Shown piece after piece: positions 8,692 through 45,243 of a stretch of 64,000 bases of DNA. Source of the DNA: a bacterium. GTDB lineage: Bacteria; Babelota; Babeliae; Babelales; JABGSX01. Where the stretch lies: positions 245 through 64,244 of the forward strand of contig JABGSX010000006.1 of NCBI GenBank assembly GCA_018647505.1. The letters are read 5' to 3'. The position numbers were made by a program, and so were the translations under genes. Position 1 is the first letter of the stretch. Each line of letters begins with the position of its first letter. The notes under the pieces are model-generated. The model saw nothing but the letters and a program-made list of their open reading frames with translations. It had not been told where the DNA came from and ran no database searches.

Positions 8692-8698
8692 AATTTCC

Positions 8699-9853: not shown

Positions 9854-10884
9854 TCCAATACCCCCGTATTTTTAAGATAATCGGTGTAGCTTATATAAAT
9901 TTTATTTTGTATGTATGATTCTACCGTTCTCGCTCGCGACCGAACCTTTTCGATTTCATCTGTAACGACAATATCAAAGCTGTCACTTCCTGCCCCCGAT
10001 CCATATGAGGTAACCAAAATGCTTTCACCCGGCTTTGCCACATCCAAAACAGCAGACAAACCCAACATCGATGCACCAGAATATGTATTTCCAATACGAT
10101 CAACTAAAAGACCCGGTGCATATTGCTTTTTGGTAAAGCCCAGGACCTTCGCAACTCTTTCTGGAAACTTTCCATTTGGTTGGTGAAATACAACATAATC
10201 GTAATCGTCCGAAGACTTACCAACCTCACCTAGCAACATCTTTGTCGCATTAATAATGTGCTTGTAATATGCTGGCTGGCCGGTAAATGCACCTGCGTGA
10301 GAAGGATATTTTTCATGCTCTCTTCTCCAAAAATCAGGGGTATCTGAAGTAAAGGAAACTGTATGATTTATTTGTGCCACAACATTATCTAATCCCAAAA
10401 TAAAAACTGCACCCCCCGCCGCTGCTGTATATTCAAGCGGATCACCCGGAGATGCCTGTGCTGTATCACACCCTCCAACAAGTACCAGCTTGGCCATTCC
10501 TGATTTAATCCACGCTAAACCAACTTGTATAGCAGCAGTTCCAGCCTTACAGGCAAACTCAAAATCTGCAGTAGTATATTTATTACCAACTCCTAATGCC
10601 TCCGCCAACACCGTTCCGGTAGGTTTTACCGCATATGGATGAGATTCACTTCCAATGTACAAGGCATCCAAGGTATCAGGTTTAATTCCGGCAACCTTTA
10701 TAGCATTCCTTGCAGCCTCCACAGAAATTGTAATTGTGTCCTCATCAATTCCAGGAACAGATTTTTCGATAACTTTAAGTCCAGACTTTATCTTCTCAGC
10801 ATCTGCAGACGACGAATTAGCAACTTCTTCAACCCGAATTCTATTGCGCGGAATATAACAACCCCAACCAACAATGCCAGCCAC
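9850..10884 (-). CDS. HMG-CoA synthase, short (~345 aa) archaeal-like form
   Basis: 344 aa. EFACKAGT catalytic Cys context, HQPNGKF, NTYSGAS. GTG start with SD AGGAGGG. 4-nt overlap with the thiolase start. Confidence 0.9.
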   Translation of the reverse strand: MAGIVGWGCYIPRNRIRVEEVANSSSADAEKIKSGLKVIEKSVPGIDEDTITISVEAARNAIKVAGIKPDTLDALYIGSESHPYAVKPTGTVLAEALGVGNKYTTADFEFACKAGTAAIQVGLAWIKSGMAKLVLVGGCDTAQASPGDPLEYTAAAGGAVFILGLDNVVAQINHTVSFTSDTPDFWRREHEKYPSHAGAFTGQPAYYKHIINATKMLLGEVGKSSDDYDYVVFHQPNGKFPERVAKVLGFTKKQYAPGLLVDRIGNTYSGASMLGLSAVLDVAKPGESILVTSYGSGAGSDSFDIVVTDEIEKVRSRARTVESYIQNKIYISYTDYLKNTGVLE

Positions 10885-23935: not shown

Positions 23936-25081
23936 ATGAGTAAAAAAGATTATTATGAAACTCTAGGGGTAACAAAAAGTGCCTCTCAAACAGAAATAAA
24001 AGCAGCCTACCGAAAATTGGCTCTTAAACATCATCCAGACAGAAATCCAAACAATAAAGAATCAGAATCCAAATTCAAAGAAGCCGCATCGGCATACGAA
24101 GTTCTATCCAGTCCAGAAAAAAGAAAACAATACGATCAATTTGGTCACGAAGGTTTCCCCAATATGGGTGGCGGTGGAAACTCATGGGGCCAAGACGGCA
24201 TGAGTATGGATGACATTTTTTCAAATTTTTCTGACATTTTTGAAGGATTCTTTGGAGATTCATTCGGCGGAAAAAGACAACATAAAAGCGTAGGACCAAC
24301 ACCCGCAAGAGGGCACGATTTAGCTAAAGAAGTTAAAGTAACACTTAAAGAATCATTCTTAGGTGTAAAAAAAGATGTTGATTTTTACCACTTTGTTCCA
24401 TGCGAAAATTGTAATGGAAAAGGGGTAAAAGCCGGCACATCTGTTTCTAAGTGCTCAGCATGTCAAGGCCATGGTCAAATTCAATATCGCCAAGGTTTTT
24501 TCTCGTACAGCCAAACGTGTGGAAGCTGCACAGGCCAAGGTTACACAATTCCAAATCCGTGTCCAGGCTGCTCCGGACAATCCCGCATACAAAAATATGA
24601 CAAGTTTAAAGTAACAATTCCTGCTGGTATTTTTGATGGCGCAGAATTGCGAATTACCGGAAAAGGTGACGCTGGCATTTATGGTGGATCAGCTGGCAAT
24701 TTGTATCTGCGTGTTAACGTCGAAGAAGATAAAAAATTCAAACGTATCGACAATGATCTTGTCTGCACTGTTATGCTAACATACCCACAATTAGTTCTTG
24801 GCTGCCAAATAGAAATTGAAAATATCGATGAAACAAAAGAAACTGTTAAAATTCCAAAGGGCTGCCCTTCTGGAGAAAAAATTACAATTAAATCAAAAGG
24901 CTTTTCGTCACTAAAAGGTAGCAGCCGAGGAAACTTAATTATTAAGACAAAATGTCACATTCCTAAAAAACTACCAACCGAAACAAAACAACTTTTAAAA
25001 GATTATTCTGAAAAAATTGGAACCGACACAACGGATTCTGATTCCAGTATTACAGGATTTTTTAAAAAATTTTTAGGTTGA
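23936..25081 (+). CDS. dnaJ: Molecular chaperone DnaJ
   Basis: 381 aa. J-domain HPD (KHHPDRN), G/F-rich region, four CxxCxGxG zinc repeats. Confidence 0.97.
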
Positions 25082-25615
25082 CGGTCTAAGTCTGAAAATT
25101 GTTCTGGCTATTTCATTGTCTAGAAATTTTATCTGTCCATCTTTGTCAACAATAACAGCAGAGCACCCTACCGGTCCATCCAAAGACCCTTCCGGGTCTC
25201 TCGCTTCAACAACAGCACAAAATTCATTGTAAGGTTCCCAAACGGCCGTGCGTTCAATCCCGCTCAACCACAACCATGCTCCTCCACGCAAGCGTTTCTG
25301 CAACTCAATTCCAGCCGCCATCATAACTCGGCCACTTGTAAAAATTTGGTTTCCCTCACCCATAAAAGAGACATCAAACGATTCCAAATATCTTGCCCGA
25401 GCCTGGTCAAACAATCTTTTTAATTTAACAGAATATGAAGCAACCAAAATTGGAACAACGGCTACATCCCCACCCTCTTTTACTTCATCATCCTTTTCTT
25501 CTTCGCGATAGTCTTCGGCCCTAGAATCACAACACCAATTCCAACAGCACGCGGCACTCATATATCCACGACCTAAAAAGAAAACGATACTTATAAATAA
25601 AAATATTTTTTTCAT
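25073..25615 (-). CDS. Small secreted/lipo-protein, island member 13 (paralog group A)
   Basis: 180 aa. [37 protein letters not shown]. Overlaps the dnaJ 3' end by 9 nt (convergent). By-eye similarity to 25627-26121. Confidence 0.7.
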
Positions 25616-25626
25616 TTTTAACCCCT

Positions 25627-26121
25627 CTAAACTGCAAATTTAAAAAGCGCATCCCCTTGTTCCGCCGACAAAATTTTTGCAGTAGACCTACCTACATAAA
25701 CATATCCATATGAAGCTGTATCCGCACCATCCAGTTCTTCTACGCATCTTACACTAGCTACAACAACATTTCCTCCTGCAATCTCCTTTGTTACATCAAT
25801 TTCATCTGTAAGCAAGGCCCATTGTCCACCTTTTTGCCGCTCAACCCGCATAGCAGCTTGAACCATTTCCCTCGCTAAATCAGTGCGGTCTTTTTTTCTA
25901 TTTTGAAAATATTTTACTCTTGCTTTTTCAAGCTCCTTCTCCAAAGAAAGGTCTCTTGCTTGAGGCATTTCAACTTCTTCTTGCCTAGAATCACTTGAAA
26001 AGCCCAAAAGCTTTTTTAAGCAATCACACCCCAAACTACTTGTAGTTATTCCGAGTAAGGATAAAAGTAATAAAATTTTGTTATTTTTTTTAATAAAACA
26101 ATACATCTTCATTAAAACCAT
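25627..26121 (-). CDS. Small secreted/lipo-protein, island member 12 (paralog group A)
   Basis: The ORF-track start at 26130 is TTG. In-frame ATGs lie at 26121, 26112 and 26106. Signal sequence ...KILLLLSLLGITTSSLGCDC. The C-terminal half aligns by eye with member 13. Confidence 0.65.
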   Translation of the reverse strand: MVLMKMYCFIKKNNKILLLLSLLGITTSSLGCDCLKKLLGFSSDSRQEEVEMPQARDLSLEKELEKARVKYFQNRKKDRTDLAREMVQAAMRVERQKGGQWALLTDEIDVTKEIAGGNVVVASVRCVEELDGADTASYGYVYVGRSTAKILSAEQGDALFKFAV

Positions 26122-26126
26122 CAAAA

Positions 26127-26681
26127 TCAATATTCTGACCCTTTAAAACAACGAGTAATAAACCCAACCTTGTCAGAATACGAAATTTGCACATCACATC
26201 CATCTCCAGCCACAATGCTCAATTGTCCACGACAACCATCTCCAGGAAACGAAACAAATATTGAAAACTTTTCTAAAACAGGAAGCGTCGTTAGCCTTAC
26301 TCTCTTTATATTCATAGCAATAACAGATTCCGCAAATTTACAAATCTCGTGTGTATCCGAAGCTTTCATTTTTGCAAAATAGGCCCAGATAATATCCCAA
26401 CACGCACGACAAAAATTTCTCTCCACATTGGCTTCAACAACACCGCCCTCGGAATAAAAACTCTCGCTAGAAAAAACTGTTCTTAAAAAATCTCCAATCC
26501 CCCTTGGACCATGACCTTCTAATATTTTGGCTGCCGTGCCAGCCCGCCAAACACTACCAACGGTCACAATACTTTGGGCAAGACTCTTTAACTCTATAAC
26601 CTCTGCACTTGCGCAACACAAAATGGAAGGAAAAATTAATAATATTATCCACAACCATTTAACTCCCCAAACTTTATACAT
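26127..26681 (-). CDS. Small secreted protein, island member 11 (possible group A relative)
   Basis: Start set at ATG 26681 (SD AAGGGGGA). MYKVWGVKWLWIILLIFPSILCCASAEV. Confidence 0.65.
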   Translation of the reverse strand: MYKVWGVKWLWIILLIFPSILCCASAEVIELKSLAQSIVTVGSVWRAGTAAKILEGHGPRGIGDFLRTVFSSESFYSEGGVVEANVERNFCRACWDIIWAYFAKMKASDTHEICKFAESVIAMNIKRVRLTTLPVLEKFSIFVSFPGDGCRGQLSIVAGDGCDVQISYSDKVGFITRCFKGSEY

Positions 26682-26700
26682 TTTAAACAAGTCCCCCTTT

Positions 26701-27153
26701 TTAAGTATCAGGCTCCAAACCAAAAGACCAAGGGCCTAACAGATCTTCATCACTACTACCCAAACTCTCTAAGTATTCCTCCCAAGGAAACTTTTCCCTT
26801 TCAGGTTTTGGCCTCCAAGTTTTAACAGTTTTCAACTTTACAGGCACAACTCTTTTAGCCTCTTCTTTTTTTCTCTTTGCAGAAGAATATGAATCTCCAG
26901 CTCGTTCTAAAAAACCTGTATATCCACCATTTTCCAGAAAAGCATCCACACTCGCAATTTGCATTCTTAAAGCTGTCATATTTCTTTGTAACTGCATGAT
27001 TACCGCACGCCCAGCGTTTTGCAACCTTCTAGAACGCGCTGATTCATGCCTAGAAAGTACAGCACCACGGCTTCTGTATGCCCCAAATTGTGAAGAAGAA
27101 ACAAGATAAGTTGAAAAAGAAAAAAGCAAAATCACTATTAAAAAATTTTTCAC
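26701..27153 (-). CDS. Small secreted Arg-rich protein, island member 10
   Basis: 150 aa. GTG start with SD AGGGAG. MKNFLIVILLFSFSTYLVSS. First gene of a tightly packed four-gene unit. Confidence 0.65.
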   Translation of the reverse strand: MKNFLIVILLFSFSTYLVSSSQFGAYRSRGAVLSRHESARSRRLQNAGRAVIMQLQRNMTALRMQIASVDAFLENGGYTGFLERAGDSYSSAKRKKEEAKRVVPVKLKTVKTWRPKPEREKFPWEEYLESLGSSDEDLLGPWSFGLEPDT

Positions 27154-27245
27154 GATTCGCTCCCTTTAAAAAGGATTTTTCTTTATGATTGGTATAGCAT
27201 ATAGGAAAAAAATTGGAGATGGTATACTTTTTGAAAAAATTCTTA

Positions 27246-27277
27246 ATAAAAAGCAGCCCCCAAAAAACAAGGGCTGC
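27246..27277 (-). terminator. Hairpin terminator after island member 9
   Basis: GCAGCCC (27253-27259) pairs with GGGCTGC (27271-27277). On the minus strand the hairpin is followed by a T-run. Confidence 0.7.
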
Positions 27278-27306
27278 AAAGTTTAACTTTTTATATGTTT
27301 TTATAT

Positions 27307-27615
27307 TTAGATTCTGGTTAGATCTTTCCTGGAAGAAGGACCAGTATCTGTGGCGCCTGTAACACCACCGGTATGAACACCACCAGAACCACCTTTAAAA
27401 CGACGGAACGACATCAAAGCTTCAAAAGCTCTTGCAGCAAGACCTTTCCCCGGCACTAAAGCTCTTCCTGTTGGTACGTAAGCCTTGCCACCACGATCTG
27501 TTTTTATCTCAGCCCCTTTTCCTGCGCACGCACCCAAAAAACACGTTTCTTTATCACCCGCACTTGCCTGAAAAACATAGGCTAAGATAACAGCTGTTAT
27601 CAAAATTCGTTTCAC
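27307..27615 (-). CDS. Small secreted Gly-rich protein, island member 9 (conserved-signal-peptide group B)
   Basis: 102 aa. GTG start with SD GAAGGA. MKRILITAVILAYVFQASA. Confidence 0.7.
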   Translation of the reverse strand: MKRILITAVILAYVFQASAGDKETCFLGACAGKGAEIKTDRGGKAYVPTGRALVPGKGLAARAFEALMSFRRFKGGSGGVHTGGVTGATDTGPSSRKDLTRI

Positions 27616-27725
27616 GTTTTATCCTTCGTAAAATATTTTTAATATAATAGCTTAATGAACACTTAAAAAGGCGACCGCATTTTACAAAGCGGTCGCCTTT
27701 TTACTTATTAAATTTTTATATTTTC
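27616..27725 (-). repeat. Intergenic module copy 1 (3' flank, terminator, leader)
   Basis: Shares AATTTAATAAGT, the GGCGACCGC/GCGGTCGCC hairpin and the TAAGC..ATTA leader with 28122-28276 and 28544-28700. Shorter than the other two copies. Confidence 0.8.
27665..27702 (-). terminator. Hairpin terminator (module copy 1)
   Basis: GGCGACCGC (27670-27678) pairs with GCGGTCGCC (27689-27697), flanked by A and T runs. Confidence 0.85.
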
Positions 27726-28121
27726 CTAATCGCCAGTACCGCCACGAGACTCACCCAAAGCACCTCCTAGTCTGCTTCTGAATTCATCTAATACACCAAG
27801 ACTTTCACCATGTTCGGCAACGGTTCTAGCAAGACCTTCGACAGTTTCTTTTGTTGCGAAAGGGACAAGATCACCTCTTTTTGCACACTCTGCAAGGTCA
27901 CCGTGGACTACCCTATCTCTTTCTAGCTCCACAACTCTTTCTTGAAGTCTCGTAACCAATCCATGAGCTTTTACACCTAAATACGCAGCTCCGACTACTA
28001 ACAGAGCCCCACCAGTTACCTGCGCAGCTCTTCTTCCTGAAATCCTCGGTAAGCGACGTTCAGCTGCACTTGCTTGTGCCACACATGCCAAAAAAATAGC
28101 GGCTATCAAAATTCGTTTCAT
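27726..28121 (-). CDS. Small secreted/membrane-anchored protein, island member 8 (group B)
   Basis: 131 aa. MKRILIAAIFLACVAQASA, then the Gly/Ala-rich hydrophobic helix VTGGALLVVGAAYLGV, then an Arg/Glu/Leu/His-rich tail. SD AAAGG. Confidence 0.75.
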   Translation of the reverse strand: MKRILIAAIFLACVAQASAAERRLPRISGRRAAQVTGGALLVVGAAYLGVKAHGLVTRLQERVVELERDRVVHGDLAECAKRGDLVPFATKETVEGLARTVAEHGESLGVLDEFRSRLGGALGESRGGTGD

Positions 28122-28276
28122 GTATTACCTTTCGTGAAAACTTAGTAATGTTAAAAATGTTTAATACAATGGCTTAACTTTATAGCACATGAACACTTGG
28201 TTGTAAACAAAAAAAGCAACTACCACATAAAACAATAATCGCTTTTTTACTTATTAAATTCTTATATTTTCTATGC
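28122..28276 (-). repeat. Intergenic module copy 2 (3' flank, decayed terminator, promoter, leader)
   Basis: Aligns by eye along nearly its full length with 28544-28700, except that the hairpin arms have decayed. Confidence 0.85.
28179..28207 (-). promoter_or_regulatory. sigma70-type promoter of island member 8
   Basis: Minus strand: TTTACA (28207-28202), 17-nt spacer, TATAAA (28184-28179). The same arrangement is conserved at 28601-28629. Confidence 0.55.
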
Positions 28277-28543
28277 CTACCAATCCAAGCGCTCTTCGAC
28301 GACTCTTATTGTTGCTAACCTTGTCTCACGTTCACGCGCAAGCTCTTCTTCGGTCTTGGCATCAGTATCTACAGCAACCTCTATAGAAGGCCCACCTAGT
28401 TCACGACTTAGTTTGCTAACAGCTTCTTTTTTTGCACAGGCAGCACATTTTACACACACCTTACACTTATGCCGTTTTCCGTCACTTGCGCTTGCTTGTG
28501 CCACACATGCCAAAAGAATAGCCACTATAAAAATTCTTCTCAT
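28277..28543 (-). CDS. Small secreted Cys-motif/acidic protein, island member 7 (group B)
   Basis: 88 aa. MRRIFIVAILLACVAQASA, then HKCKVCVKCAACAKK (CxxCxxCxxC), then a Glu/Arg-rich tail. Confidence 0.7.
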   Translation of the reverse strand: MRRIFIVAILLACVAQASASDGKRHKCKVCVKCAACAKKEAVSKLSRELGGPSIEVAVDTDAKTEEELARERETRLATIRVVEERLDW

Positions 28544-28600
28544 TTGTTAACTTTCGCCAAAACCTTATAATTTAAAAAATGCTTAATACAACGGCTTAAT

Positions 28601-28629
28601 TTTATAGCACATGAACATTTGGTTGTAAA
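28601..28629 (-). promoter_or_regulatory. sigma70-type promoter of island member 7
   Basis: Minus strand: TTTACA (28629-28624), 17-nt spacer, TATAAA (28606-28601). Starts directly after the terminator T-run. Confidence 0.55.
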
Positions 28630-28630
28630 C

Positions 28631-28670
28631 AAAAAAGGCGACCGCCTTTTGCAAAGCGGTCGCCTTTTTT
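28631..28670 (-). terminator. Hairpin terminator (module copy 3)
   Basis: GGCGACCGC (28637-28645) pairs with GCGGTCGCC (28656-28664), flanked by A and T runs. Confidence 0.85.
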
Positions 28671-28700
28671 ACTTATTATTTTCTTTAAAAAGAACTTTTA

Positions 28701-29234
28701 TTATTCGGCGTATGCTCCTGAAGTAAGAGCAACATGCTCGCCTAGAGCGGTTTCCACAGCTACAATTCTTCCTGCGTGAGATCCCAAGGCATCACTATGT
28801 GCTCCAATAGCTCCACCATGTTCTTCAAGAGATGCTTCATGTCTGGAAAGAGTATCCCCCTGTCCGGAAATAACGCGACTCTGTGCGGAAAGAGTTTCTT
28901 CATGTCTCGCTGACGCTTTTCCCAATACTCTCAACGACGCACCTAAATCAGCTGAATCTGTTAACGCTGACAATCGTGCAGCCATTCTTCCACCAAGCCC
29001 CCAAGCCTTTTTACCACCAACATAAAGTAAGGCTAAGGCTCCGGCGCCACCAGCAACTTTGGCTTGTGTTCTATAATCAACACGTGTAAAACGATCTGTT
29101 GCATAACTTCCAGCACCAAGTGTTGCTACAACCGCCGCTCTTTTACCCCATTTTTTAGCGGCCGCTTTTTTTCCGCCAGCCATCATGTGAGCTCCGACAG
29201 ACAACAACAATATTGCAAAAAGTAAACGTTTCAT
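28701..29234 (-). CDS. Secreted/membrane-anchored protein with His-heptad tail, island member 6
   Basis: Start set at ATG 29234 (SD AAAGGG). MKRLLFAILLLSVGAHMMA, G/A-rich helix AGGAGALALLYVGGKKAW, then nine x-H-x-x-x-[LI]-x heptads at the C-terminus. Confidence 0.75.
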   Translation of the reverse strand: MKRLLFAILLLSVGAHMMAGGKKAAAKKWGKRAAVVATLGAGSYATDRFTRVDYRTQAKVAGGAGALALLYVGGKKAWGLGGRMAARLSALTDSADLGASLRVLGKASARHEETLSAQSRVISGQGDTLSRHEASLEEHGGAIGAHSDALGSHAGRIVAVETALGEHVALTSGAYAE

Positions 29235-29343
29235 AAAAAAAACCCTTTCTGAGTTTGAAAAACCTATTAAACACAACTTCCTACCAACTTCAACCTAGTT
29301 TATAACATAGAAGATTTTTAAAGTAAACCCCACAAAATAACAC

Positions 29344-29814
29344 CTAGCAATGTCTTGCTTTCCAACTTGTTTTAGCACTTTTTGCTATATAATATACCGA
29401 GGGAAAATTTCGATTTAAAAATCTTAAAAATCGTCCATCATCACTGCATGAAATTCGCCGTGTAAGAACGCCCTCTATTTCTGGTTGTTCTTGGTCGGCA
29501 ACGGCATTTTCACCTTCGTAACAGCCTCCTTGTGACTTTTCTTCAAGCTTTTTGCTTAAACTTGGACGTTCTTCTTCTTCATGATGTTCCGAATTATTTG
29601 GGGGATTTTCAGAATCCTCTGGCCCACATGGCATATCATCTTCAACGAGAACCGACGGTCCACGATAAGAATCATAAGCTTTTTTTCCAGCTACAGTTAA
29701 ACATGCCAGAACCGCAATCCCCGCAGCTACATTTTGCCCTTTACTCATCTCAGCCCTGGAGGCAAAGTGAACACTCATGGCAAGAAAAACCAGCATCAAT
29801 AAACATTTTTTCAT
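29344..29814 (-). CDS. Secreted/membrane-anchored acidic protein, island member 5
   Basis: 156 aa. MKKCLLMLVFLAMSVHFASRA, second helix VAAGIAVLACLTVAGKKAY, then an acidic segment. Confidence 0.7.
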   Translation of the reverse strand: MKKCLLMLVFLAMSVHFASRAEMSKGQNVAAGIAVLACLTVAGKKAYDSYRGPSVLVEDDMPCGPEDSENPPNNSEHHEEEERPSLSKKLEEKSQGGCYEGENAVADQEQPEIEGVLTRRISCSDDGRFLRFLNRNFPSVYYIAKSAKTSWKARHC

Positions 29815-29999
29815 GTTTGTACTCCTTGTGTAATTGTACGATTAATAAAACAGTATGGTTTATAATATGATTGATATTTTTTACCACAGAAAAAATGATT
29901 TGCCAAGCAAGTTTGATGTTGAATTATCCGTTCTTACTTAGTGGAATAAGCGATAGCGAATGTGGCCAAATGTATACGAACATAAAGAAAAGATTTAAA

Positions 30000-30314
30000 T
30001 TAATTTAATGGCGCCTCTGCAGCCCGAACACCATCGCCTGTATCTAACTCCATTTGCAATTCAGCTTCAAATTGTTTTTGTCTTGCTTGTGCTGCTTCTT
30101 TTTGCTTCGCTTCTCTATCCGCCTGTGCACGTTCTAATGCAAGATCTCGTTGGTCTTCTTGAACTCCACGTATAGTATTGGCCGTCATCATTCGCCTTAA
30201 CTTAGAAGTAATGACCGAAACTTGTCTTGGAACTGCGGATTGTTCTTCTTTGTCAGCTGAATACATAAATACACAAAAGCTCAAACAAAAAAATAAACTA
30301 ATAATTTTTTTCAT
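30000..30314 (-). CDS. Small secreted charged (Q/E/R/A-rich) protein, island member 4
   Basis: 104 aa. MKKIISLFFCLSFCVFMYSA. SD TGGAG. Confidence 0.7.
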   Translation of the reverse strand: MKKIISLFFCLSFCVFMYSADKEEQSAVPRQVSVITSKLRRMMTANTIRGVQEDQRDLALERAQADREAKQKEAAQARQKQFEAELQMELDTGDGVRAAEAPLN

Positions 30315-30359
30315 AAAAACTCCATATTTAATTTTTCTTGAATCTACAATAGATTTTGA

Positions 30360-30722
30360 TTACTTTCTTTTAGCCGCACTAACACTAGATCGCCAAGCAG
30401 AAAAAACTTTTTTTACCAACTCTTTATGATCAATAAAAATACTTCTCATTTCATCCATGCCCTGTTCACGGCTTTCCACCTCTTCTTGATACATACTCTT
30501 TGAATAGTTTGTTACTGTAGACCAATTGTCATCATCATCGCAAGGCACAGCCTCCCCGGGCAATTCAACAACAGAACAATTAGGCCTTAAAAGGCTCTCT
30601 ACTGTTTCACAACCATCCGTGCCTCCTGTCGGTTCACCAAAGGCTCCAGCGTATACACGATTATCAGCCCCCCTCAACCAAAAAGTGAAAAACAATAAAA
30701 GACAAAACAAAGCTCTTTTCAT
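30360..30722 (-). CDS. Small secreted protein, island member 3
   Basis: Start set at ATG 30722 (SD AAGGA) rather than the ORF-track TTG at 30743. MKRALFCLLLFFTFWLRGADN. Confidence 0.65.
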   Translation of the reverse strand: MKRALFCLLLFFTFWLRGADNRVYAGAFGEPTGGTDGCETVESLLRPNCSVVELPGEAVPCDDDDNWSTVTNYSKSMYQEEVESREQGMDEMRSIFIDHKELVKKVFSAWRSSVSAAKRK

Positions 30723-30784
30723 AAAATCCTTAGAAATATTCAAAAAAATTATAATGTTATAGAGTAAAAAGTTTACAAAAAAAA

Positions 30785-30819
30785 GAGGAAAAAGACTATT
30801 AATTTAAGTCTTTTTCCTC
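30785..30819 (-). terminator. Hairpin terminator after island member 2
   Basis: Perfect 12-bp stem: GAGGAAAAAGAC (30785-30796) pairs with GTCTTTTTCCTC (30808-30819). On the minus strand it is followed by a T-run. Confidence 0.85.
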
Positions 30820-30838
30820 AAAAAACAATTTTTACTTT

Positions 30839-31372
30839 TTATCTACTAATACTCCTTTGCTTTCCATCAACCCCACGGTTAAATTGAGCCATCAATGCAT
30901 CAAGAGAATCAAAATCACCGGACCTTTTCGCACTCGATGGTCTTGGTTCCGGCTCTTCTCCGCCCTCATCTAAAGCGTCCAAAACTCTTGTGGGATCTCG
31001 GCGAAGCCTGGTTGCAACTCCGCGAGGAACAAACGAAACCCTTCTACCGCCACGCTCCACTTGCAGGAGACTTGTTGGGACATGCGGAACACCTTTTACA
31101 GCAAGTCTTCCCATTGCACAAAATAACGGTGGCACAGCTGGTGTTTCATCTGCGGTCTCAGCATGGGCTTCTGTAGCATAAGCTTCTCCCCCCGAAGGAG
31201 GCGCATCTTCATGACCCTTCGCCCCAAATATTTTCATAACCAAAGCTGATAAAAATAATTTGTGTGGTTCGCTCGGGCAGGCACCATAGGCACCGGCACG
31301 ATGCCTTGACGCACCCTCTAAAATCCCAGTCGACAAAACTATAAACAAAAAAAGAGCTGCTATTTTTTTCAT
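30839..31372 (-). CDS. Secreted Ala/Gly/Arg/Pro-rich protein, island member 2
   Basis: 177 aa. MKKIAALFLFIVLSTGILEGA. SD AGGGAA. Confidence 0.7.
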   Translation of the reverse strand: MKKIAALFLFIVLSTGILEGASRHRAGAYGACPSEPHKLFLSALVMKIFGAKGHEDAPPSGGEAYATEAHAETADETPAVPPLFCAMGRLAVKGVPHVPTSLLQVERGGRRVSFVPRGVATRLRRDPTRVLDALDEGGEEPEPRPSSAKRSGDFDSLDALMAQFNRGVDGKQRSISR

Positions 31373-31404
31373 GAAATGGTTCCCTAAATTTTGAATTTTA
31401 CAAC

Positions 31405-31737
31405 TTACCTCTTACTTAAAGCACACGGATCATCTAAAACAATTCTAATTCCATCAAGTAGTCCAACGTCAGCTCTAGAAGAATCATCTTCCCCTTCTAA
31501 ACCATCATAACGCTCATGCCGTGGAGAAAATACATCAAATTGATTGCGCGGATACGACAAACCTCTAAAACCCGGATGCTTAACGTCTGTCATATCAACA
31601 CATCTATGAACAACCGGCCTTAAAAGAACAAATCTTGCCGCGCATGCAACAAGACCTTTTTGTGCTCCAGGATCTCCAGGAAAAGATTTTTGAGAAATCG
31701 ACAACAAAACAATCGCAATCATAACAACCTTCTTCAT
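31405..31737 (-). CDS. Small secreted protein, island member 1
   Basis: 110 aa. MKKVVMIAIVLLSISQKSFPG. SD GGGGGGAG. Confidence 0.7.
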   Translation of the reverse strand: MKKVVMIAIVLLSISQKSFPGDPGAQKGLVACAARFVLLRPVVHRCVDMTDVKHPGFRGLSYPRNQFDVFSPRHERYDGLEGEDDSSRADVGLLDGIRIVLDDPCALSKR

Positions 31738-32079: not shown

Positions 32080-33189
32080 TCACACACCTAACTTTCGCTT
32101 CTTTAAACTTTTTTGCGAAAATACTATTTTCCTTTTTTCTTTTATGCTCAATTGATTAAGAACATAATAAAAAAAATCACGGTCCGCACCTTTTACCACC
32201 GCCTGCTCATGAGCCTCCGACAAACATACCGGATAGCCTTGGCCCTTTTTGCTCTGATCAAAACAAACCGATGCTACAACATCAACCAAACTTTGATCGT
32301 TTGCAATCCATGCTGGAAATTCAACACGAGCAACCTCTTGCCCAACGTTCATGTAAAAAAAATGCGGAACTAAGTGTTCCGGATACTGTTTGGTAATTCG
32401 ACTGTTGTTTTTAAAAACAATGGACCTCTGTCCCTCTTGCAAATAAAAACTTGCTATCGAGCTGTCGACCAAGTGATCAACTGAATTTGCCGAGTTATAT
32501 TTACTGTGATCAAAAGCACATAACTCTAAACGAATCAAATTTACAAGCTCCTTGCTTTTTGGAAAGCTTATGTAGCTTGCTGTTATTATTTTTTTCTCAT
32601 ACACCCGCTCAAGAAGAGCGATATAGATTGACAAGAATCTTTGTTTTATTTCATGTCCATAATTTTCCAAATGCCAAAAAATTAATGAGCCATCAAAAAG
32701 CAAAATTGTCCCGGGATTTTTTGAAGCATAATCAATACCGACCTTGAATTCCAGTTCTTGCCTGCGGCAATCTACAATCTCAGATGAAAAACTTTCTGCA
32801 ATATCAGAAACATCCTTCATTGAAAAAACATACGGAACAGTGATCATTTTTGCAGGAATATAATTTTTGGAATAATTAAGATGAACAATCCCTACATTAA
32901 CCAAAAAACAAGATGCCCCATAATGCCTATCGGGATAAATTTGGGAACCATCAACGGCCACAACCTTGTATTCAGAACTTGGCTTAACATTATATTTTCT
33001 ACCAAGCAATCCACCCCAATGTGGTACAAGCCACGGACTTTGAGACGCCTTAACCTTTTGATCAAAAGTACTCTCTTGAGAAATTTTGGTCCACACTTTT
33101 TCTGCACGCAAATATTCATCTGAAAAGTCTAAAAATAATTCATCCGTCGCTAAAGACAAGGCTTTTACAACCTTGGCACGGTCAAGCAT
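32080..33189 (-). CDS. NurA-domain-like nuclease (tentative)
   Basis: 369 aa. VVAVDGSQIYPDR and LLFDGSLIFW (two DGS blocks), and GQGYPVCLSEAHEQAVV near the C-terminus. This matches my memory of the NurA 5'-3' nuclease domain pattern. Start overlaps the sufU stop by 8 nt. Confidence 0.55.
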   Translation of the reverse strand: MLDRAKVVKALSLATDELFLDFSDEYLRAEKVWTKISQESTFDQKVKASQSPWLVPHWGGLLGRKYNVKPSSEYKVVAVDGSQIYPDRHYGASCFLVNVGIVHLNYSKNYIPAKMITVPYVFSMKDVSDIAESFSSEIVDCRRQELEFKVGIDYASKNPGTILLFDGSLIFWHLENYGHEIKQRFLSIYIALLERVYEKKIITASYISFPKSKELVNLIRLELCAFDHSKYNSANSVDHLVDSSIASFYLQEGQRSIVFKNNSRITKQYPEHLVPHFFYMNVGQEVARVEFPAWIANDQSLVDVVASVCFDQSKKGQGYPVCLSEAHEQAVVKGADRDFFYYVLNQLSIKEKRKIVFSQKSLKKRKLGV

Positions 33190-33580
33190 TTTTATCTCGA
33201 TATTTTTTTATTCCATCTTGAATTGCTCTCAACGACAAAACTGCGCATTTTATTCGCGCAGGACCAAGCTCCATTTTGATCAAATTTAAAACATCATGTT
33301 CTTCTAGTTTATCAATTTCCTTAATAGTCTTTCCCTTACAAAACTCAGTAAGTATCGATGCTGTTGCCATACTTATCACGCAACCGTCTCCACTAAATTT
33401 TATTTCTGTAATAACACCATTATTGACCTTCGCATCTATATTAACCTGATCACCACAGGTTGGATTGTGATGCAAACTAGAAATGTCTGGGGTTTTCAAT
33501 AAACCTTTGTTTTTTGGATTTTTGTAGTGCTCCTGCATGTGATGCGCATATAGATTTTTAATGCTCATTTTGTGCTTCAC
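33182..33580 (-). CDS. sufU: SufU/IscU-type Fe-S cluster scaffold/sulfur acceptor protein
   Basis: 132 aa. NPTCGD, GDGCVISMATAS and a C-terminal KCAVLS cysteine. Confidence 0.85.
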   Translation of the reverse strand: MKHKMSIKNLYAHHMQEHYKNPKNKGLLKTPDISSLHHNPTCGDQVNIDAKVNNGVITEIKFSGDGCVISMATASILTEFCKGKTIKEIDKLEEHDVLNLIKMELGPARIKCAVLSLRAIQDGIKKYRDKNA

Positions 33581-33720: not shown

Positions 33721-35460
33721 ATGAAAATAAAAAATAATTATAAAAAAACTTTTGTTAAAATTTTTCTTATTTTTTTACTTATAGCCAGCACAAATTCACA
33801 TACAGCCTCTGAAGGACTTAGGTTATTTTATACAGAATGCGACAGACTAACAGCTGAAATTGAAGCGACTCCAGGCCTAAGCCCTTCTCTGTTAAGTCGA
33901 TCAGAGAAAATGCTCGCAACTGTTGCAAAAGAAATTAACTCTGTTGAATGGAGCCAAGAAATTTTTACAAGAGTCTCACAATTGGTTCAAGCAATAGGAA
34001 AAAAAACATTAGAAGGAGACGGGCTTTCACCAGAAGCTGACATAAAGCAAATCGCATTGGCATTTTCCATGTTCCCAGATTCTCACAAAGATGCAAGACA
34101 CCCTGTAAACATTCTAGGATTATCAAATACTCTGCTTATGCTTTGTGGTCAATCAGCATCCAGAACAAGCGGTTTATTAACGGACGGGTCTCATAACATA
34201 TTTTTGCCAAGTATTCTGCGAAGCTTGTTTACCATAACCGACTCATTGCACAGAACAATTACAACAAGGCAGCTAAGGGAGGTTGCACAGTTCAACCTAG
34301 CAGAACATGGAATTGCGGTCATTCCACCTAGCATGGCAGCAGAATTCGGGCAGCACCTTATTTGCGATTCATGGGTAGCAGCAGAAGCACTTCCCGCTAA
34401 CTTGTTTGGCCCTCGGCCACCATCAGAAGTTGAACGGTTACTTTCCGAATATGGTGCAATTTCTGACGAGGTAGGAAGACACATAGAAATACTTAGACAA
34501 AAAGCCGAACAACTAGGACGACCACTGACGGCTGAAGATCTTCTTGGAGATGCCCCCGAGGAAAAAGAAGAAGAAGAGGAAGAAGAAGCACCAACGTTTC
34601 CAGCCGCGGAGGAAGAAGATCCAATGTTGTCCTCCAATAGCCCCCGTGCAATTTTTGCGCAAATAACAGGGCTGGTTACACGAGGCAAAAAACTGTTTAT
34701 AGCAATTATAGCACTTGGAACCGCCACAGGAACAATGGGAGCCCTATTTAAACGCCAATCAAATGGAACAAGAGTCTTTGACGGCGGGCTTTCTGCTTTA
34801 ATGGCAATTCCAGCAATATTTTCTGGAGTTAAAGTTGCCGGTGCAGCAGTTATAGCATTACTATCAGCATGGTACACCTCATGGAAAATAAAACGACTTT
34901 TACACGCTGACTGCAGAGCTGAAAGAAAGCTTGATCAAGACCGATTCAGATTGACATATGAACGTCATGGCGAACAAACATTATTAAAGCTTAAAGACAT
35001 CAAGCGTGTACAAAAAGAGATACTACGCGAACAAAAAGCAGACAAAAAAGAAAGACAACGACTGAGGGAAGAATTGGCGGCATCAGTTGCAAGTGTAACA
35101 ACCGTAGCACAAGGCACAAAGGCTGTTATGGACCAACAATTTAAAGCAATAATGGACAAACATCAAAGCGCAGAGGGAATTGTCCAAGAACTACAAGCAC
35201 TTGTTTTACAATGCTCTGATATGGCATTGCACGTCAGGGATGGCGTCGGCGCATACCTAGAAGGACACGAAGCTCAACTTATGGATGCAGCTATAAGTCG
35301 CGGGGTACCACAGTTGGTTCGCGATGACGAATTGAGAAGATTAGAATATATAGTTGCACATCATGGCCGATTTGGAAAAGGCAAATATAAAGAACGGCAA
35401 AAAGTAACACAGGCAATAGCAGATGTTCCTAGTGAAGCTCTTGTTGTTATTGAAACATAA
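33721..35460 (+). CDS. Hypothetical G+C-rich protein with signal sequence, poly-Glu tract, paired TM helices and a coiled-coil-like C-terminus
   Basis: 579 aa. MKIKNNYKKTFVKIFLIFLLIAS, EEKEEEEEEEA (around 34561-34590), hydrophobic pair KLFIAIIALGTATGTMGALF and LSALMAIPAIFSGVKVAGAAVIALLSAWY (around 34690-34885), and a K/E/R/Q-rich tail. Confidence 0.7.
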   Translation: MKIKNNYKKTFVKIFLIFLLIASTNSHTASEGLRLFYTECDRLTAEIEATPGLSPSLLSRSEKMLATVAKEINSVEWSQEIFTRVSQLVQAIGKKTLEGDGLSPEADIKQIALAFSMFPDSHKDARHPVNILGLSNTLLMLCGQSASRTSGLLTDGSHNIFLPSILRSLFTITDSLHRTITTRQLREVAQFNLAEHGIAVIPPSMAAEFGQHLICDSWVAAEALPANLFGPRPPSEVERLLSEYGAISDEVGRHIEILRQKAEQLGRPLTAEDLLGDAPEEKEEEEEEEAPTFPAAEEEDPMLSSNSPRAIFAQITGLVTRGKKLFIAIIALGTATGTMGALFKRQSNGTRVFDGGLSALMAIPAIFSGVKVAGAAVIALLSAWYTSWKIKRLLHADCRAERKLDQDRFRLTYERHGEQTLLKLKDIKRVQKEILREQKADKKERQRLREELAASVASVTTVAQGTKAVMDQQFKAIMDKHQSAEGIVQELQALVLQCSDMALHVRDGVGAYLEGHEAQLMDAAISRGVPQLVRDDELRRLEYIVAHHGRFGKGKYKERQKVTQAIADVPSEALVVIET

Positions 35461-35588: not shown

Positions 35589-36554
35589 TTGAAAAACAGA
35601 CTTTTTGCCCGAACATTGAATTTACACAGAAAAAGATTACAATTATGGTCTACTGTAAAATTAAGTATGGTTTTGTTATTAACATTTTTTATGGCACAGT
35701 GCGGCCTAAGCGAGAGATCAATGATAGAACATAAGAACGAAGCTCAAGAAGAAGACCCTCCCTCTTTATCTAAGTCTAAAACCACAAAACATATTATCTT
35801 TGACCTTGGCGGAGTAATGATACACTTTCCAAAAATTCGCCCTCTGTTTTATATTGGAATTGGAAATATTTTGTGGTACACACTCATAAAACGAAAAAAT
35901 CCAACCAAAATTTTGTACCATCTACTAGATATCGCTTACAAAATGGTCGACGAAAAAGAAAAAACCGATATCGTATTTAAAGACCACGTAATGTTTAGAA
36001 ACCACCCGCTAACAGCACTAACAAAAGAAGCCCTTTTGGGACACGTTACTTGTAACCAATTGCTAAAAGCAACAAAAGAGGCTTTGGTGAAAGCACAAGC
36101 TAAAAAGTTAATTGAACCACGAGAGCGAATGATCTTAGAAAAATTTGCAGATTTAATTATCGATCCAAAAACTGGCACACAGTATCTTGAAATATCAAGT
36201 TCATGCGTAAGCTTAATCCGTAAACTTAAAGAAGACAAAAACAACAAACTATATATTTTATCCAATTGGCCTGCAGACTCATTTGAGCTTTTAAGCCACT
36301 TACACAACGATGTTTTTAATCTATTTTACGGAATGGTAATCTCATCACATGTTCATCTGATAAAACCAGACAAAAAAATATACGAAAAACTATTAGTAAA
36401 ATACAATCTTGACCCTAGGTGTTGTTATTTTGTTGACGACCAGCAGGAAAACTTGGATGCCGCCAAAGATGTTGGAATCCACGGAGTTCTATGGAAAAAT
36501 GCAAGTGACGCAGAAATCAAACTAAAGAAACTTCACGTTATAGAAGATGTATGA
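35589..36554 (+). CDS. HAD-superfamily hydrolase with N-terminal membrane/signal segment
   Basis: 321 aa. Motif I IIFDLGGVM and motif IV YFVDDQQENLDAAKDVG. The TTG start in the ORF track is uncertain. Confidence 0.7.
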   Translation: MKNRLFARTLNLHRKRLQLWSTVKLSMVLLLTFFMAQCGLSERSMIEHKNEAQEEDPPSLSKSKTTKHIIFDLGGVMIHFPKIRPLFYIGIGNILWYTLIKRKNPTKILYHLLDIAYKMVDEKEKTDIVFKDHVMFRNHPLTALTKEALLGHVTCNQLLKATKEALVKAQAKKLIEPRERMILEKFADLIIDPKTGTQYLEISSSCVSLIRKLKEDKNNKLYILSNWPADSFELLSHLHNDVFNLFYGMVISSHVHLIKPDKKIYEKLLVKYNLDPRCCYFVDDQQENLDAAKDVGIHGVLWKNASDAEIKLKKLHVIEDV

Positions 36555-37018
36555 AATCATTTCTTGTAATCTCTACAATCATTTTTGATCTTGCTGGAGT
36601 AATATTTAATTTCCAACCTTCCGATTTAACACTTGCCTTAAAACAAGATGTTCCTAGCAACCCTTTTTCCGTTTTTGACCAAGGACTTGCTACAGTAAAA
36701 AGATTAAAAGAAAAAAATTTCAAAGTTATTGCTTGCACAAATTTTGGCAAGGGGCCAATGGACCTTTTAAACAAATATCACAAAGACGTAATGGATTTAT
36801 TTGAAGATGTAATTACACCATCTGAATCTAAACACAGTAAACCTGACGCTAGAATGTATTCATACATTTTGAAAAAGCATAACGTTGTAGCAGAAGAATG
36901 TTTATTTATAGATGACTGCCAAAGTAATGCAATAGGCGCAAACGATGTTGGCCTTAATGCAATACATCTAAAAAACTGGGAACAAGCTATAAAAGAACTT
37001 AAAGAATTAGGCCTTTAA
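36551..37018 (+). CDS. HAD-superfamily hydrolase (short)
   Basis: 155 aa. IIFDLAGVIF and LFIDDCQSNAIGANDVG. 4-nt overlap with the upstream HAD gene. Confidence 0.75.
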   Translation: MKSFLVISTIIFDLAGVIFNFQPSDLTLALKQDVPSNPFSVFDQGLATVKRLKEKNFKVIACTNFGKGPMDLLNKYHKDVMDLFEDVITPSESKHSKPDARMYSYILKKHNVVAEECLFIDDCQSNAIGANDVGLNAIHLKNWEQAIKELKELGL

Positions 37019-43587: not shown

Positions 43588-44760
43588 TTACAAAATAACC
43601 CGCACAAATTCCTGCATAGAAATAATGCCATCTTTTACTTTTTGCAGACCATCTTCTTTTAGTGTTTTCATGCCATCTAATTCGGCCTGTTTGTGTATTT
43701 TGTCAAAATGAGGATCGTGTATAATAAGCGAACGAAGATTACTTGTCATTTTTAATAACTCAAACAATCCAACCCGACCTTTATAACCAACATTACAGCA
43801 TTTTTGGCAACCAGAAGACTTCCAAAGAGTTTTTAAGTCCAACTTTAATCGACGTAATATTGTTTTTTCATGTTCGTCAGGTAAAATTTGTTTTTTGCAG
43901 TTCTGGCACAACTTTCTGGCAAGTCGCTGCGCCAACACACCAGAAACAGAAGCATTAATTAAAAACGGCTCAACACCCATATCAAGCAATCGCATAATGG
44001 CGCCAGGGGCATCATTAGTATGCAGCGTGCTAAAAACCAAATGCCCGGTAAGAGCAGCTTCGACAGCTACTCCAGCAGTTTCTTTATCACGAATTTCACC
44101 AATCATAGCAATGTCTGGGTCTTGTCTTAATAAAGAACGCATTCCCTTTGCAAAAGTGAATCCCGCCTGATTGTTAACCTGTCCCTGAACAACACCATCG
44201 ATATTGTACTCAACAGGGTCTTCCAATGTTATAATATTTTTTTCTGGACTTTTAAACTCAGAGAGCGTCGCATATAACGTTGTCGTCTTTCCAGAACCAG
44301 TTGGCCCTGTAACCAGAAAAAATCCACTTGAATGTGATACAAGGTCTCGATACAAACTCAAAACATCTTCTTCAAAGCCAAGTTCGTCCAATGATAATGT
44401 CTGATTTGAGCTATCTAAAATCCTGATAACTACATTTTCGCCATAAATAGAAGGAAATGTGGAAACTCGAAGATCAACCGTCCGGTCCAACAAAAAAAAA
44501 TTGAACTTACCATCCTGTGGAATGCGCTTTTCGGAGATGTCTATATTAGCTAAAACTTTAACTCGAGATACAACCTGTTGTTTAACGGAATCCGAAAGGG
44601 AGCCAACAGGGATTAACACTCCATCGACACGGCAACGCACATTCAGGCAATTTTTGCTAGGCTCAAGGTGAATGTCTGACGCCCTGTATGATACCGCATT
44701 TTCAATTAGCTCACTAACAGTCTCAACAACTGAAAGATCACCCCTTACTTCAAACAACAT
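43588..44760 (-). CDS. Type IV pilus / type II secretion ATPase (PilB/GspE family), N2 + ATPase part
   Basis: 390 aa. ASDIHLEP, Walker A GPTGSGKTTT, Walker B and His-box region, tetracysteine CQNC...CQKC. Confidence 0.9.
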   Translation of the reverse strand: MLFEVRGDLSVVETVSELIENAVSYRASDIHLEPSKNCLNVRCRVDGVLIPVGSLSDSVKQQVVSRVKVLANIDISEKRIPQDGKFNFFLLDRTVDLRVSTFPSIYGENVVIRILDSSNQTLSLDELGFEEDVLSLYRDLVSHSSGFFLVTGPTGSGKTTTLYATLSEFKSPEKNIITLEDPVEYNIDGVVQGQVNNQAGFTFAKGMRSLLRQDPDIAMIGEIRDKETAGVAVEAALTGHLVFSTLHTNDAPGAIMRLLDMGVEPFLINASVSGVLAQRLARKLCQNCKKQILPDEHEKTILRRLKLDLKTLWKSSGCQKCCNVGYKGRVGLFELLKMTSNLRSLIIHDPHFDKIHKQAELDGMKTLKEDGLQKVKDGIISMQEFVRVIL

Positions 44761-44784
44761 GCTCTTTACCTTTTTTTCAACTAG

Positions 44785-45243
44785 CTACTCACCAGGAGCA
44801 GAATCATAATACTCACGAATAGAATCTAAGATCCCTTGATAAATGCCAACTCTAAATTGAATGTCATATGAAACATGCTCACCAATTTTTGCCAATAACT
44901 CTTGATCGCTTGGGTCATTAGCAACCATAATTAAAATGTTCTCATCACGCTCTACCGGTACGACAACATTGCGAATTAAAAAGTCTTTGGGAAAAACATG
45001 TAATAAATCTTTTTTGAAAAAATATCCACGGCAGTCAAAGCTAGGAACGTCATAATGCTGACTTAAAACTTTAAGCAAATCATCCTTAGCAATAATTCCC
45101 TCACTTAAAAGAAAATCATCAAATGATTCCTTCGCTCGATGAGAAAAAGACTCCTGAAGCTGAAACGATTCCTCAAGTGATATTAAGTTGTTTTTGGTCA
45201 ATAGCTTCACAACTTCTCTTACAAAAACCTTTTTTTTCGACAT
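44785..45243 (-). CDS. GspE/PilB N-terminal (T2SSE_N-type) domain protein, in frame with the ATPase ORF
   Basis: 152 aa, with the typical ...VPVERDENILIMVANDPSDQELLAKIGE block. Separated from the ATPase ORF only by one TAG and 8 sense codons in the same frame. Confidence 0.8.
   Translation of the reverse strand: MSKKKVFVREVVKLLTKNNLISLEESFQLQESFSHRAKESFDDFLLSEGIIAKDDLLKVLSQHYDVPSFDCRGYFFKKDLLHVFPKDFLIRNVVVPVERDENILIMVANDPSDQELLAKIGEHVSYDIQFRVGIYQGILDSIREYYDSAPGE

Follow-up and report, generated by a model that had tools for sequence, protein, structure and literature searches.

What is a run of thirteen short genes between two conserved genes of an A+T-rich bacterial genome: a block of foreign DNA, an undescribed system of cooperating parts, or a product of the genome itself? 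The run lies in a 64,000 bp stretch of contig JABGSX010000006.1 (positions 245 to 64,244; assembly GCA_018647505.1), referred to here as the window. Thirteen consecutive minus-strand genes at 25073-31737, annotated as “hypothetical protein HN446_005xx” and numbered here from the dnaJ side, occupy the 6,998 bp that separate the stop codons of dnaJ (23936..25081, plus strand) and NurA (32080-33189, minus strand). The dnaJ gene is the conserved anchor on one side of this slot, and NurA, with the IscU/NifU-like gene beside it (33182-33580, minus strand; joint stretch 32080..33580), is the anchor on the other. Based on DnaJ and synteny, the contig is assigned to the Dependentiae (TM6). The DnaJ of the window is 100% identical to one from a metagenome-assembled bacterial genome at NCBI; the next DnaJ relatives share 73-74% and then approximately 64% identity, and some of them are named Candidatus Dependentiae or Babeliales. 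Dependentiae are obligate intracellular parasites of protists that are widespread and almost uncultured. We interpret the block, with a probability of about 0.6, as a lineage-specific tandem array of thirteen native genes that evolved in place, encode small proteins with Sec-type signal peptides, and occupy a slot that recurs in Dependentiae.

The initial annotation, made from the sequence without database searches, described thirteen minus-strand open reading frames (ORFs) of 88-184 aa, and this description held. With the likeliest start codons the ORFs have exactly this length range, and when the six frames are scored by codon frequencies learned from the window's other 47 genes, the annotated frame comes first for 13 of 13. 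Stop-free stretches of at least 88 codons sum to 6,243 bp on the gene strand, compared to a mean of 180 bp and a maximum of 1,245 bp in 300 shuffles. Independent gene callers obtained the same lengths in three other assemblies of the same organism and called the genes in four. The only support for the idea that the ORFs arose by chance or are annotation artefacts is that they lack homologues. It is countered by the excess of long open frames, the best-scoring frame in every case, the signal-peptide architecture of all thirteen products and the independent gene calls, and we consider it already refuted, with a likelihood close to nil.

Purine runs resembling Shine-Dalgarno (SD) sequences precede approximately 11 of the 13 starts, where the initial annotation had given every gene its own SD. 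Gene 1 overlaps the end of dnaJ convergently by 9 nt (25073-25081), as had been noted. Genes 1-4 are only 11-19 bp apart, whereas genes 4-9 are separated by A+T-rich spacers of 109-185 bp, and G+C-rich hairpins followed by T-runs occur between several of the array genes. One such palindromic, terminator-like hairpin at 27665..27702 has copies at 28632-28669 and 27253-27277. Given the spacing and the hairpins, the array is probably transcribed partly as an operon and partly as individual genes. Assemblies from at least four other samples (L083-L085 and JGI 3300072015) contain the same 12-kb region with 99.99-100% identity, which suggests a clonal population that was sampled widely, or else a common sampling site.

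The most consistent property of the thirteen proteins is their N-terminus. It had been described as an M-[KR]-[KRN] start with a hydrophobic core. In all thirteen proteins a basic n-region, mostly M-K/R-K/R, precedes 12-18 residues free of charge, and each has the Sec-type layout of a basic n-region and a hydrophobic h-region of ~7-18 residues within the first ~30. A crude signal-peptide rule detected such leaders in 13/13 array genes, compared to 10/48 other genes of the window. Cleavage-type sites with small residues at -3 and -1 are present in most of the proteins (e.g., ASA↓G, ASA↓A, ASA↓S, ASA↓E and LEG↓A). An AXA-type c-region is clear in genes 3, 5, 6, and 7 (ASA↓), plausible in genes 2, 4, 11, and 12, and weak in genes 1, 8, 9, 10, and 13. 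The processing enzyme for Sec leaders is encoded in the same window: a signal peptidase I (Peptidase_S26, LepB; 47145-48032, minus strand; E 1.8e-35) would be expected to process the array leaders.

Most array proteins do not look like lipoproteins. The lipobox [LVI][ASTVI][GAS]C is not matched by the array, and only gene 2 (SSLG↓C) fits a relaxed PROSITE-type pattern. The SAA↓C of gene 1 fails the lipobox charge rule, the other genes have no lipobox at the right place, and matches of the array proteins to LPAM_1 are below threshold. A second hydrophobic segment is clear in genes 6, 9, and 13 and weaker in genes 1 and 8. We also considered whether the N-termini could generally act as mitochondrial presequences, and rejected this idea because only about 4 of 13 mature N-termini are basic and amphipathic, the others being strongly acidic.

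From these features, the array proteins would be exported via Sec and cleaved by the signal peptidase I encoded in the window. Several may then be kept in the membrane by the second helix, which is Gly/Ala-rich, or by the lipobox of gene 2, and the remaining proteins could be soluble in the periplasm or be released by type II machinery or vesicles. A type II/IV secretion ATPase is encoded in the window (43588..45243, minus strand), though substrates of the type II secretion system (T2SS) carry no sequence signature by which they could be recognized. This ATPase comprises a T2SSE ORF (43588-44760) and a separate ORF with an MshEN domain (44785-45243), 24 bp apart; the arrangement could reflect a split gene, a frameshift or a natural two-part organization.

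Beyond the leader, almost nothing about the proteins can be recognized. The absence of a family motif, claimed in the initial annotation, was borne out by profile searches: no family-level match was found to Pfam for any of the 13, or to NCBIfam and PHROGs for the 10 members scanned in each. The C-terminus of gene 2 has a weak match to PHROG 6233, which has no assigned function (E 1.8e-4), and host-like domains such as ankyrin or F-box were not detected in the family scans. Among 5.8e9 proteins the sole match of gene 1 was gene 1 itself. An exhaustive HMMER search with the mature part of gene 3 against 1.84e9 representatives returned the protein itself and one spurious translated tandem repeat. 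Ten array proteins were looked up and nine are on record, in 90% identity clusters of 1-2 members whose variants differ only in start-codon translation. Sequence searches of the Protein Data Bank (PDB) with array proteins, gene 2 included, yielded only noise. AlphaFold2 (AF2) without an alignment gave mean confidence (pLDDT) values of 47 for gene 1 and 55.6 for gene 3, and a Foldseek search of the PDB with the gene 3 model returned noise (best E 0.47).

Comparisons among related loci were equally negative. Against ~0.92 Mb of related loci, blastn and tblastx searches with the array found nothing in any frame, and the 13 proteins had no significant match among all slot ORFs of relatives. The 13 proteins are also mutually unrelated, save for one small group of paralogues. 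Genes 1 and 2 appeared similar by eye, but their match is not significant (E 0.13). The initial annotation had proposed the block as an undescribed system; the thirteen are mostly unrelated, show no sign of working together, and belong to a class of signal-peptide ORFans that has been described.

The paralogue group indicates how at least part of the array may have formed. Genes 5, 6, and 7 have a leader in common (MKRILI..QASA), and the similarity extends upstream of it. The sequence at 28060-28220 (minus strand) shares 84% identity over 161 nt with that at 28482-28642, covering ~100 nt upstream, the SD and the leader, and a further copy of this putative cassette of promoter, 5′ untranslated region (5′UTR) and leader is located at 27554-27643. 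The similarity stops exactly at the signal-peptide boundary. For genes 5-7 the similarity z-score is 13.6 for the leader and 0.6 for the mature part. Two related loci have the same pattern, with values of 5.0 versus 1.2 in L120, which has an eight-gene array, and 3.7 versus 0.8 in L106; a cross-locus control gave 1.3. Genes 6 and 8 are weakly similar across a hydrophobic helix rich in Gly and Ala and a helical tail (E 4.5e-6 unadjusted; 0.009 after adjustment for composition). Based on genes 5-7, L120, and L106, such arrays appear to grow by tandem duplication in which promoter and leader are kept and the mature part diverges past recognition. In terms of mechanism, a unit of promoter, 5′UTR and leader would be duplicated in tandem, the leader would then be conserved, and the mature part would be free to diverge.

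This pattern has known parallels. In conotoxin superfamilies and in the paralogous lipoprotein families of Borrelia, the leader (and upstream sequence) is conserved and the mature part is hypervariable. The likeness to genes 5-7, L120, and L106 lies in a similar promoter, 5′UTR and signal peptide in front of mature parts that cannot be aligned. This is analogy without homology: the five assemblies with the array are structurally identical and gave no evidence of diversifying selection or of switching by recombination. The array is a clear example of duplication that conserves the leader, and offers a practical entry to the turnover of effector or surface proteins.

We compared the locus across relatives, found by two routes. 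A scan of genome contigs with DnaJ retrieved mostly generic DnaJ loci, with L003 and L004 the useful exceptions, and an alignment-based NurA profile scan of metagenome contigs added 80 loci. The taxonomy of the metagenome loci rests on synteny and 55-65% DnaJ identity, not on phylogeny. In relatives found via DnaJ the order is conserved as amine oxidase, epimerase and dnaJ on the plus strand, then NurA and IscU on the minus strand, and the content between dnaJ and NurA varies. L003 has two unrelated Lys-rich genes in the slot, L086 one ORFan and a GH1 gene, L087 eight ORFans, and L088 five ORFans. In L001/L002 there are at least 11 paralogues of one family, where the contig ends.

Slot statistics were based on the 44 loci with both anchors in convergent orientation. 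The gap between NurA and dnaJ ranges from -4 bp to 5.9 kb. It had been suggested that the two genes might be adjacent elsewhere without the block. This was found in 10 of the 44 loci, where they are directly adjacent (≤66 bp). The others hold different, unrelated ORFs between them, 1-9 per locus and 86 in total, and 64 of the 86 are co-oriented with NurA. Using the same liberal rule, 52 of the 86 slot ORFs (60%) are signal-peptide-like, compared to 43% outside the slot (odds ratio 2.0, p = 0.003). Most slot proteins (71/110) are singletons; the clusters that do exist are confined to single loci or to closely related lineages. The array in the window, with 13 genes in 6,998 bp, is the largest closed one. 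What appears to be new here, on the evidence of gene order, is positional: the convergent 3′-3′ junction of NurA and dnaJ is a recurrent insertion slot, with turnover of its content across the phylum. The locus provides an anchored place (IscU-NurA ... dnaJ) at which lineage-specific exported proteins can be compared phylum-wide.

The at least 11 tandem paralogues of L001 (11152-20965; DnaJ identity 64%) share one architecture, and none has a Pfam match. The signal peptide is followed by ~25 aa and a hydrophobic helix with an NAF..GF...VA motif; a basic stretch comes next, and the proteins end in a disordered Ala/Ser/Pro/Arg tail that bears a recurrent [FY][ST]P[KR]T.A[IL] motif. A hidden Markov model of this family had no match among the proteins of the window.

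A second variable slot is located between IscU and a HAD hydrolase. In the window it holds a 579-aa ORFan (33721..35460, plus strand) with a predicted signal peptide and two internal hydrophobic helices; L086 and L087 have other ORFans at this place, and in L003 and L088 it is empty.

The array had been described as visibly richer in G+C than the flanking housekeeping genes, and as possibly horizontally acquired. The first statement is correct in direction, with an overall G+C of 0.40 versus 0.36, but the rise is modest, and ordinary genes at 8.7-10.9 kb are richer still. The DNA coding for the leaders has a G+C content of 0.33 and that coding for the mature parts 0.45, compared to 0.364 for the window. 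The G+C content at third codon positions (GC3) of the 13 genes is 0.24-0.35, inside the range of the flanks (0.22-0.37), and the extra G+C is in codon positions 1 and 2. After control for amino-acid usage, the codon-preference distance between the array and the rest of the window is 0.148, while random gene sets have 0.144 ± 0.033 and 35% of them lie at this distance or farther. Synonymous GC3 is 0.261 observed versus 0.287 expected, and Arg is encoded mainly by AGA in the array, likewise elsewhere in the window. The initial annotation had named GC3 and codon usage indistinguishable from the flanks as the result that would speak against a foreign block, and this is the result that we obtained.

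The bias is in the proteins. As stated previously, the mature parts are rich in Ala, Gly, Arg, and Glu: Arg is enriched x2.2, Ala x1.8, Gly x1.6, and Glu x1.3, and Asn (x0.36), Ile (x0.41), and Lys (x0.6) are depleted. Compared to the rest of the window's proteins, the array has significantly more disorder-promoting and fewer order-promoting residues (p ~3e-6). The combined fraction of Gly, Ala, Arg, and Pro (GARP) is 0.325 in the array versus 0.19, and the Arg/Lys ratio (R/K) is 1.48 versus 0.39. The non-homologous array of L001 is shifted alike (GARP 0.355 versus 0.22; R/K 1.9 versus 0.52; GC3 below the flanks), as is the 579-aa ORFan of the window, which is GARP-rich with R>K. GARP-richness is not a general property of slot genes, however: on average it is absent in 34 other loci, and we saw it only in the window and L001. 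The Arg/Ala/Gly-rich composition appears to be maintained at the amino-acid level and not to be a trace of foreign DNA. Since neutral drift should erode a GARP bias in a genome of 36% G+C, we infer selection on amino-acid composition in this sub-lineage. This serves as a caution that where G+C visibly rises within an A+T-rich genome, the cause can be purely amino-acid composition rather than horizontal transfer.

Acquisition of an island next to dnaJ from a donor of higher G+C, whether bacterial, viral or the eukaryotic host itself, would explain the raised G+C of the array and its mature parts, the GARP-richness with R>K, and the presence of the block in some relatives and its absence in others. 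The native GC3 and synonymous choice, including AGA for Arg, argue against it, and none of the usual marks of mobility was found. There is no tRNA or Rfam element near the array (the closest tRNAs being those at 3.3 kb and 46.4 kb), no mobility domain such as an integrase or transposase in the family scans of the window, and no direct repeats bounding the array. No phage or plasmid DNA matched the array, and viral contigs had no match for the three array proteins tried. The database-wide searches, which covered genes 1 and 3, revealed no homologue in a plausible donor, and among the related loci there was none for any of the 13. Moreover, part of the array arose by duplication in place, and other lineages have filled the same slot with different genes. 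We thus regard horizontal acquisition as largely refuted and very improbable. A very old origin in a G+C-richer genome, with third positions fully ameliorated since, is conceivable in the strict sense. The comparison with classical genomic or pathogenicity islands is similarly mixed: like these, the array is an accessory block, patchy among relatives and situated between housekeeping genes, but it lacks foreign codon usage, a tRNA, an integrase and repeats, and was built in place.

Another possibility is that most of the genes are young proto-genes. They would have formed de novo or been scrambled following duplication, would owe their expression to read-through from IscU-NurA, and would be not yet or no longer functional, with leader-like N-termini that arise easily from A+T-rich sequence. 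That the members are ORFans, that the proteins are short and the AF2 confidence is low for the two tested, that a 3′-3′ junction tolerates insertions and 64 of the 86 slot ORFs are co-oriented with NurA, and that in other loci the GC3 of slot ORFs is below that of the anchor genes, are all consistent with this. Nevertheless, ORFs arising de novo from DNA of 36% G+C should be rich in Lys, Asn, and Ile; the array is the opposite, and it shares its bias with the non-homologous L001 array. Many of the genes have their own SDs and some have their own promoter-like and terminator-like elements, and the long intact ORFs with a conserved leader point to maintenance. We therefore consider the proto-gene explanation improbable.

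Are the products directed at the host, or are they ordinary constituents of the cell envelope? Because Dependentiae are parasites of protists, a host-directed or surface role is plausible. Published genomes offer precedents. In Chromulinavorax destructans, 44% of coding sequences have a signal peptide; ORFans are over-represented among them, and export is attributed to Sec (PMC6561590). Babela massiliensis has ~20% ORFan proteins and 37 tandem duplications; type II is its only secretion system, and its signal-peptide proteins are presumed to reach the host (PMC4378268). The suggestion that the array is host-directed if the organism is host-associated thus gained in plausibility with the placement in Dependentiae/TM6, and matches the proposals made for Chromulinavorax and Babela (PMC6561590, PMC4378268). 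The Dependentiae signal-peptide ORFans form a descriptive class, not a homology family. The array has its features: the same phylum, a Sec-type leader, no homologues, tandem duplication, and presumed transport by Sec and then T2SS or vesicles. It differs in that the published cases stress ankyrin-repeat proteins, proteases and nucleases, while none of the 13 array proteins has any domain. The block is an instance of this genome-wide class, and neither a foreign island nor a new system of cooperating parts. Neither PMC6561590 nor PMC4378268 describes the location in a slot between NurA and dnaJ or a composition rich in Arg, Ala, and Gly.

The proteins could alternatively be ordinary envelope components (periplasmic, inner- or outer-membrane, structural or stress proteins) without a host role, whose divergence reflects weak constraint and not an arms race. 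The second hydrophobic helix or lipobox by which several members would stay in the envelope, the positive-inside pattern that follows this helix, the few extracellular proteins predicted in Dependentiae metagenome-assembled genomes (MAGs; PMC11495043), and the failure to detect host-like domains all fit this alternative. On the other side, housekeeping envelope proteins are normally conserved across a phylum, and here nothing is shared even at 55-65% DnaJ identity. The slot is also empty in 10 of 44 loci, which implies that its contents are dispensable. We consider a purely housekeeping role in the envelope a credible but unlikely explanation. Our preferred reading is of native genes whose products are most likely Sec-exported, fast-evolving proteins of the envelope or host interface, and their turnover would reflect rapid, lineage-specific evolution at the cell envelope or host interface of an intracellular parasite.

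Several points weigh against this interpretation. Export, cleavage and localization are predictions from a simple rule, and in gene 9 and the L001 family, where basic residues follow the second helix, the positive-inside rule would leave the tail on the cytoplasmic side of the bacterium. Since few extracellular proteins were predicted for Dependentiae in a survey of MAGs from activated sludge (PMC11495043), having a signal peptide does not have to entail secretion to the host. The five assemblies that contain the array (the window and four others, as DNA or protein) are structurally the same, and their identity of 99.99-100% left no variation from which purifying or diversifying selection, or a ratio of nonsynonymous to synonymous substitution rates (dN/dS), could be estimated. 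The effective database-wide searches covered genes 1 and 3 only. Furthermore, the net charge of the mature parts spans -7 to +8 across the array, and such heterogeneity does not imply a single function.

Chlamydial Inc proteins are another possible comparison from an intracellular bacterium. They too are ORFan-like, often lie in clusters, have hydrophobic segments close to the N-terminus and end in tails that are disordered or coiled. Inc proteins, however, have a bilobed hydrophobic domain and are type III substrates, whereas the first segment of the array proteins is a classical Sec leader, and the second is present in only some of the 13 and is separate from that leader. Inc family models gave a sole match, CT529, at E = 0.1. 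To our knowledge, no type III system is known in the phylum Dependentiae. The locus bears on how Dependentiae handle their hosts without type III, IV or VI systems.

More speculatively, the NurA/dnaJ junction might serve as a phylum-wide nursery of secreted proteins, in which a promoter-leader cassette is duplicated, the mature part is replaced or evolves rapidly, and each lineage obtains a private host-interface set, with selection in the sub-lineage of the window holding an Arg/Ala/Gly-rich, disorder-prone composition against A+T pressure. We offer this as a tentative idea that is doubtful at present; if it were true, the selection that holds the composition would mean that these proteins act on the protist host in a common way.

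The individual genes, all on the minus strand, illustrate the diversity of the predicted mature parts. Gene 1 (25073..25615; 180 aa), whose stop-proximal end overlaps dnaJ, encodes a signal peptide, a CCWNWCC cysteine cluster, an acidic linker and a globular-looking C-terminal part. Gene 2 (25627..26112; 161 aa), with the lipobox-like SSLG↓C, is possibly a lipoprotein. The product of gene 3 (26127..26681; 184 aa) has a signal peptide (ASA↓E) and 6 Cys in its mature part, and that of gene 4 (26701..27153; 150 aa; GTG start) a signal peptide and an Arg-rich mature N-terminus. The leader shared by genes 5-7 reads MKRILITAVILAYVFQASA in gene 5 (27307..27615; 102 aa; GTG start), where it precedes a Gly-rich mature part. 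It is followed by the second Gly/Ala-rich hydrophobic helix and a helical tail in gene 6 (27726..28121; 131 aa), and by a CxxCxxCxxC cluster and an acidic helical tail in gene 7 (28277..28543; 88 aa).

Gene 8 (28701..29234; 177 aa), which is weakly like gene 6, combines a signal peptide with Gly/Ala-rich hydrophobic segments and His-x3-Leu heptad-like repeats. In gene 9 (29344..29814; 156 aa) the signal peptide is followed by the second hydrophobic helix at residues 27-44 and an acidic tail. A signal peptide and a charged tail make up gene 10 (30000..30314; 104 aa); judged by eye, this tail, like gene 8, looks helical. Gene 11 (30360..30722; 120 aa) has a signal peptide and an acidic mature part. 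The Ala/Pro/Arg-rich mature part that follows the signal peptide of gene 12 (30839..31372; 177 aa) has the highest G+C of the array (0.50). Gene 13 (31405..31737; 110 aa) encodes a signal peptide and a second hydrophobic segment at residues 29-43.

Other regions of the window merit mention. The G+C maximum of the window (0.41-0.45), likewise due to codon positions 1 and 2, is an overlapping operon at 7074-10884 (minus strand) that encodes HMG-CoA reductase, a DUF35/ChsH2-type protein with OB-fold and zinc ribbon, thiolase and an HMG-CoA-synthase-like protein, an archaeal-type thiolase/HMGCS/DUF35 arrangement. Next to it, at 10975-18468 (minus strand), are four tandem paralogues of ~600 aa that are 34-52% identical; the N-terminus resembles a signal peptide clearly in three of them and marginally in the fourth. 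TPR repeats and a methyltransferase-like domain are present in the first (10975-12828), and precomputed Pfam results place TPR in two others. Two adjacent HAD-family ORFs at 35589-37018 (plus strand) overlap by 4 nt. The second of them, of 155 aa, shares 35% identity with the C-terminal part of its neighbour, and the pair may represent a partial duplication. Finally, we identified a heparinase II/III-like protein with N and C domains at 58664-60559 (minus strand) in this reduced parasite genome, which could be a polysaccharide lyase acting on host glycans.

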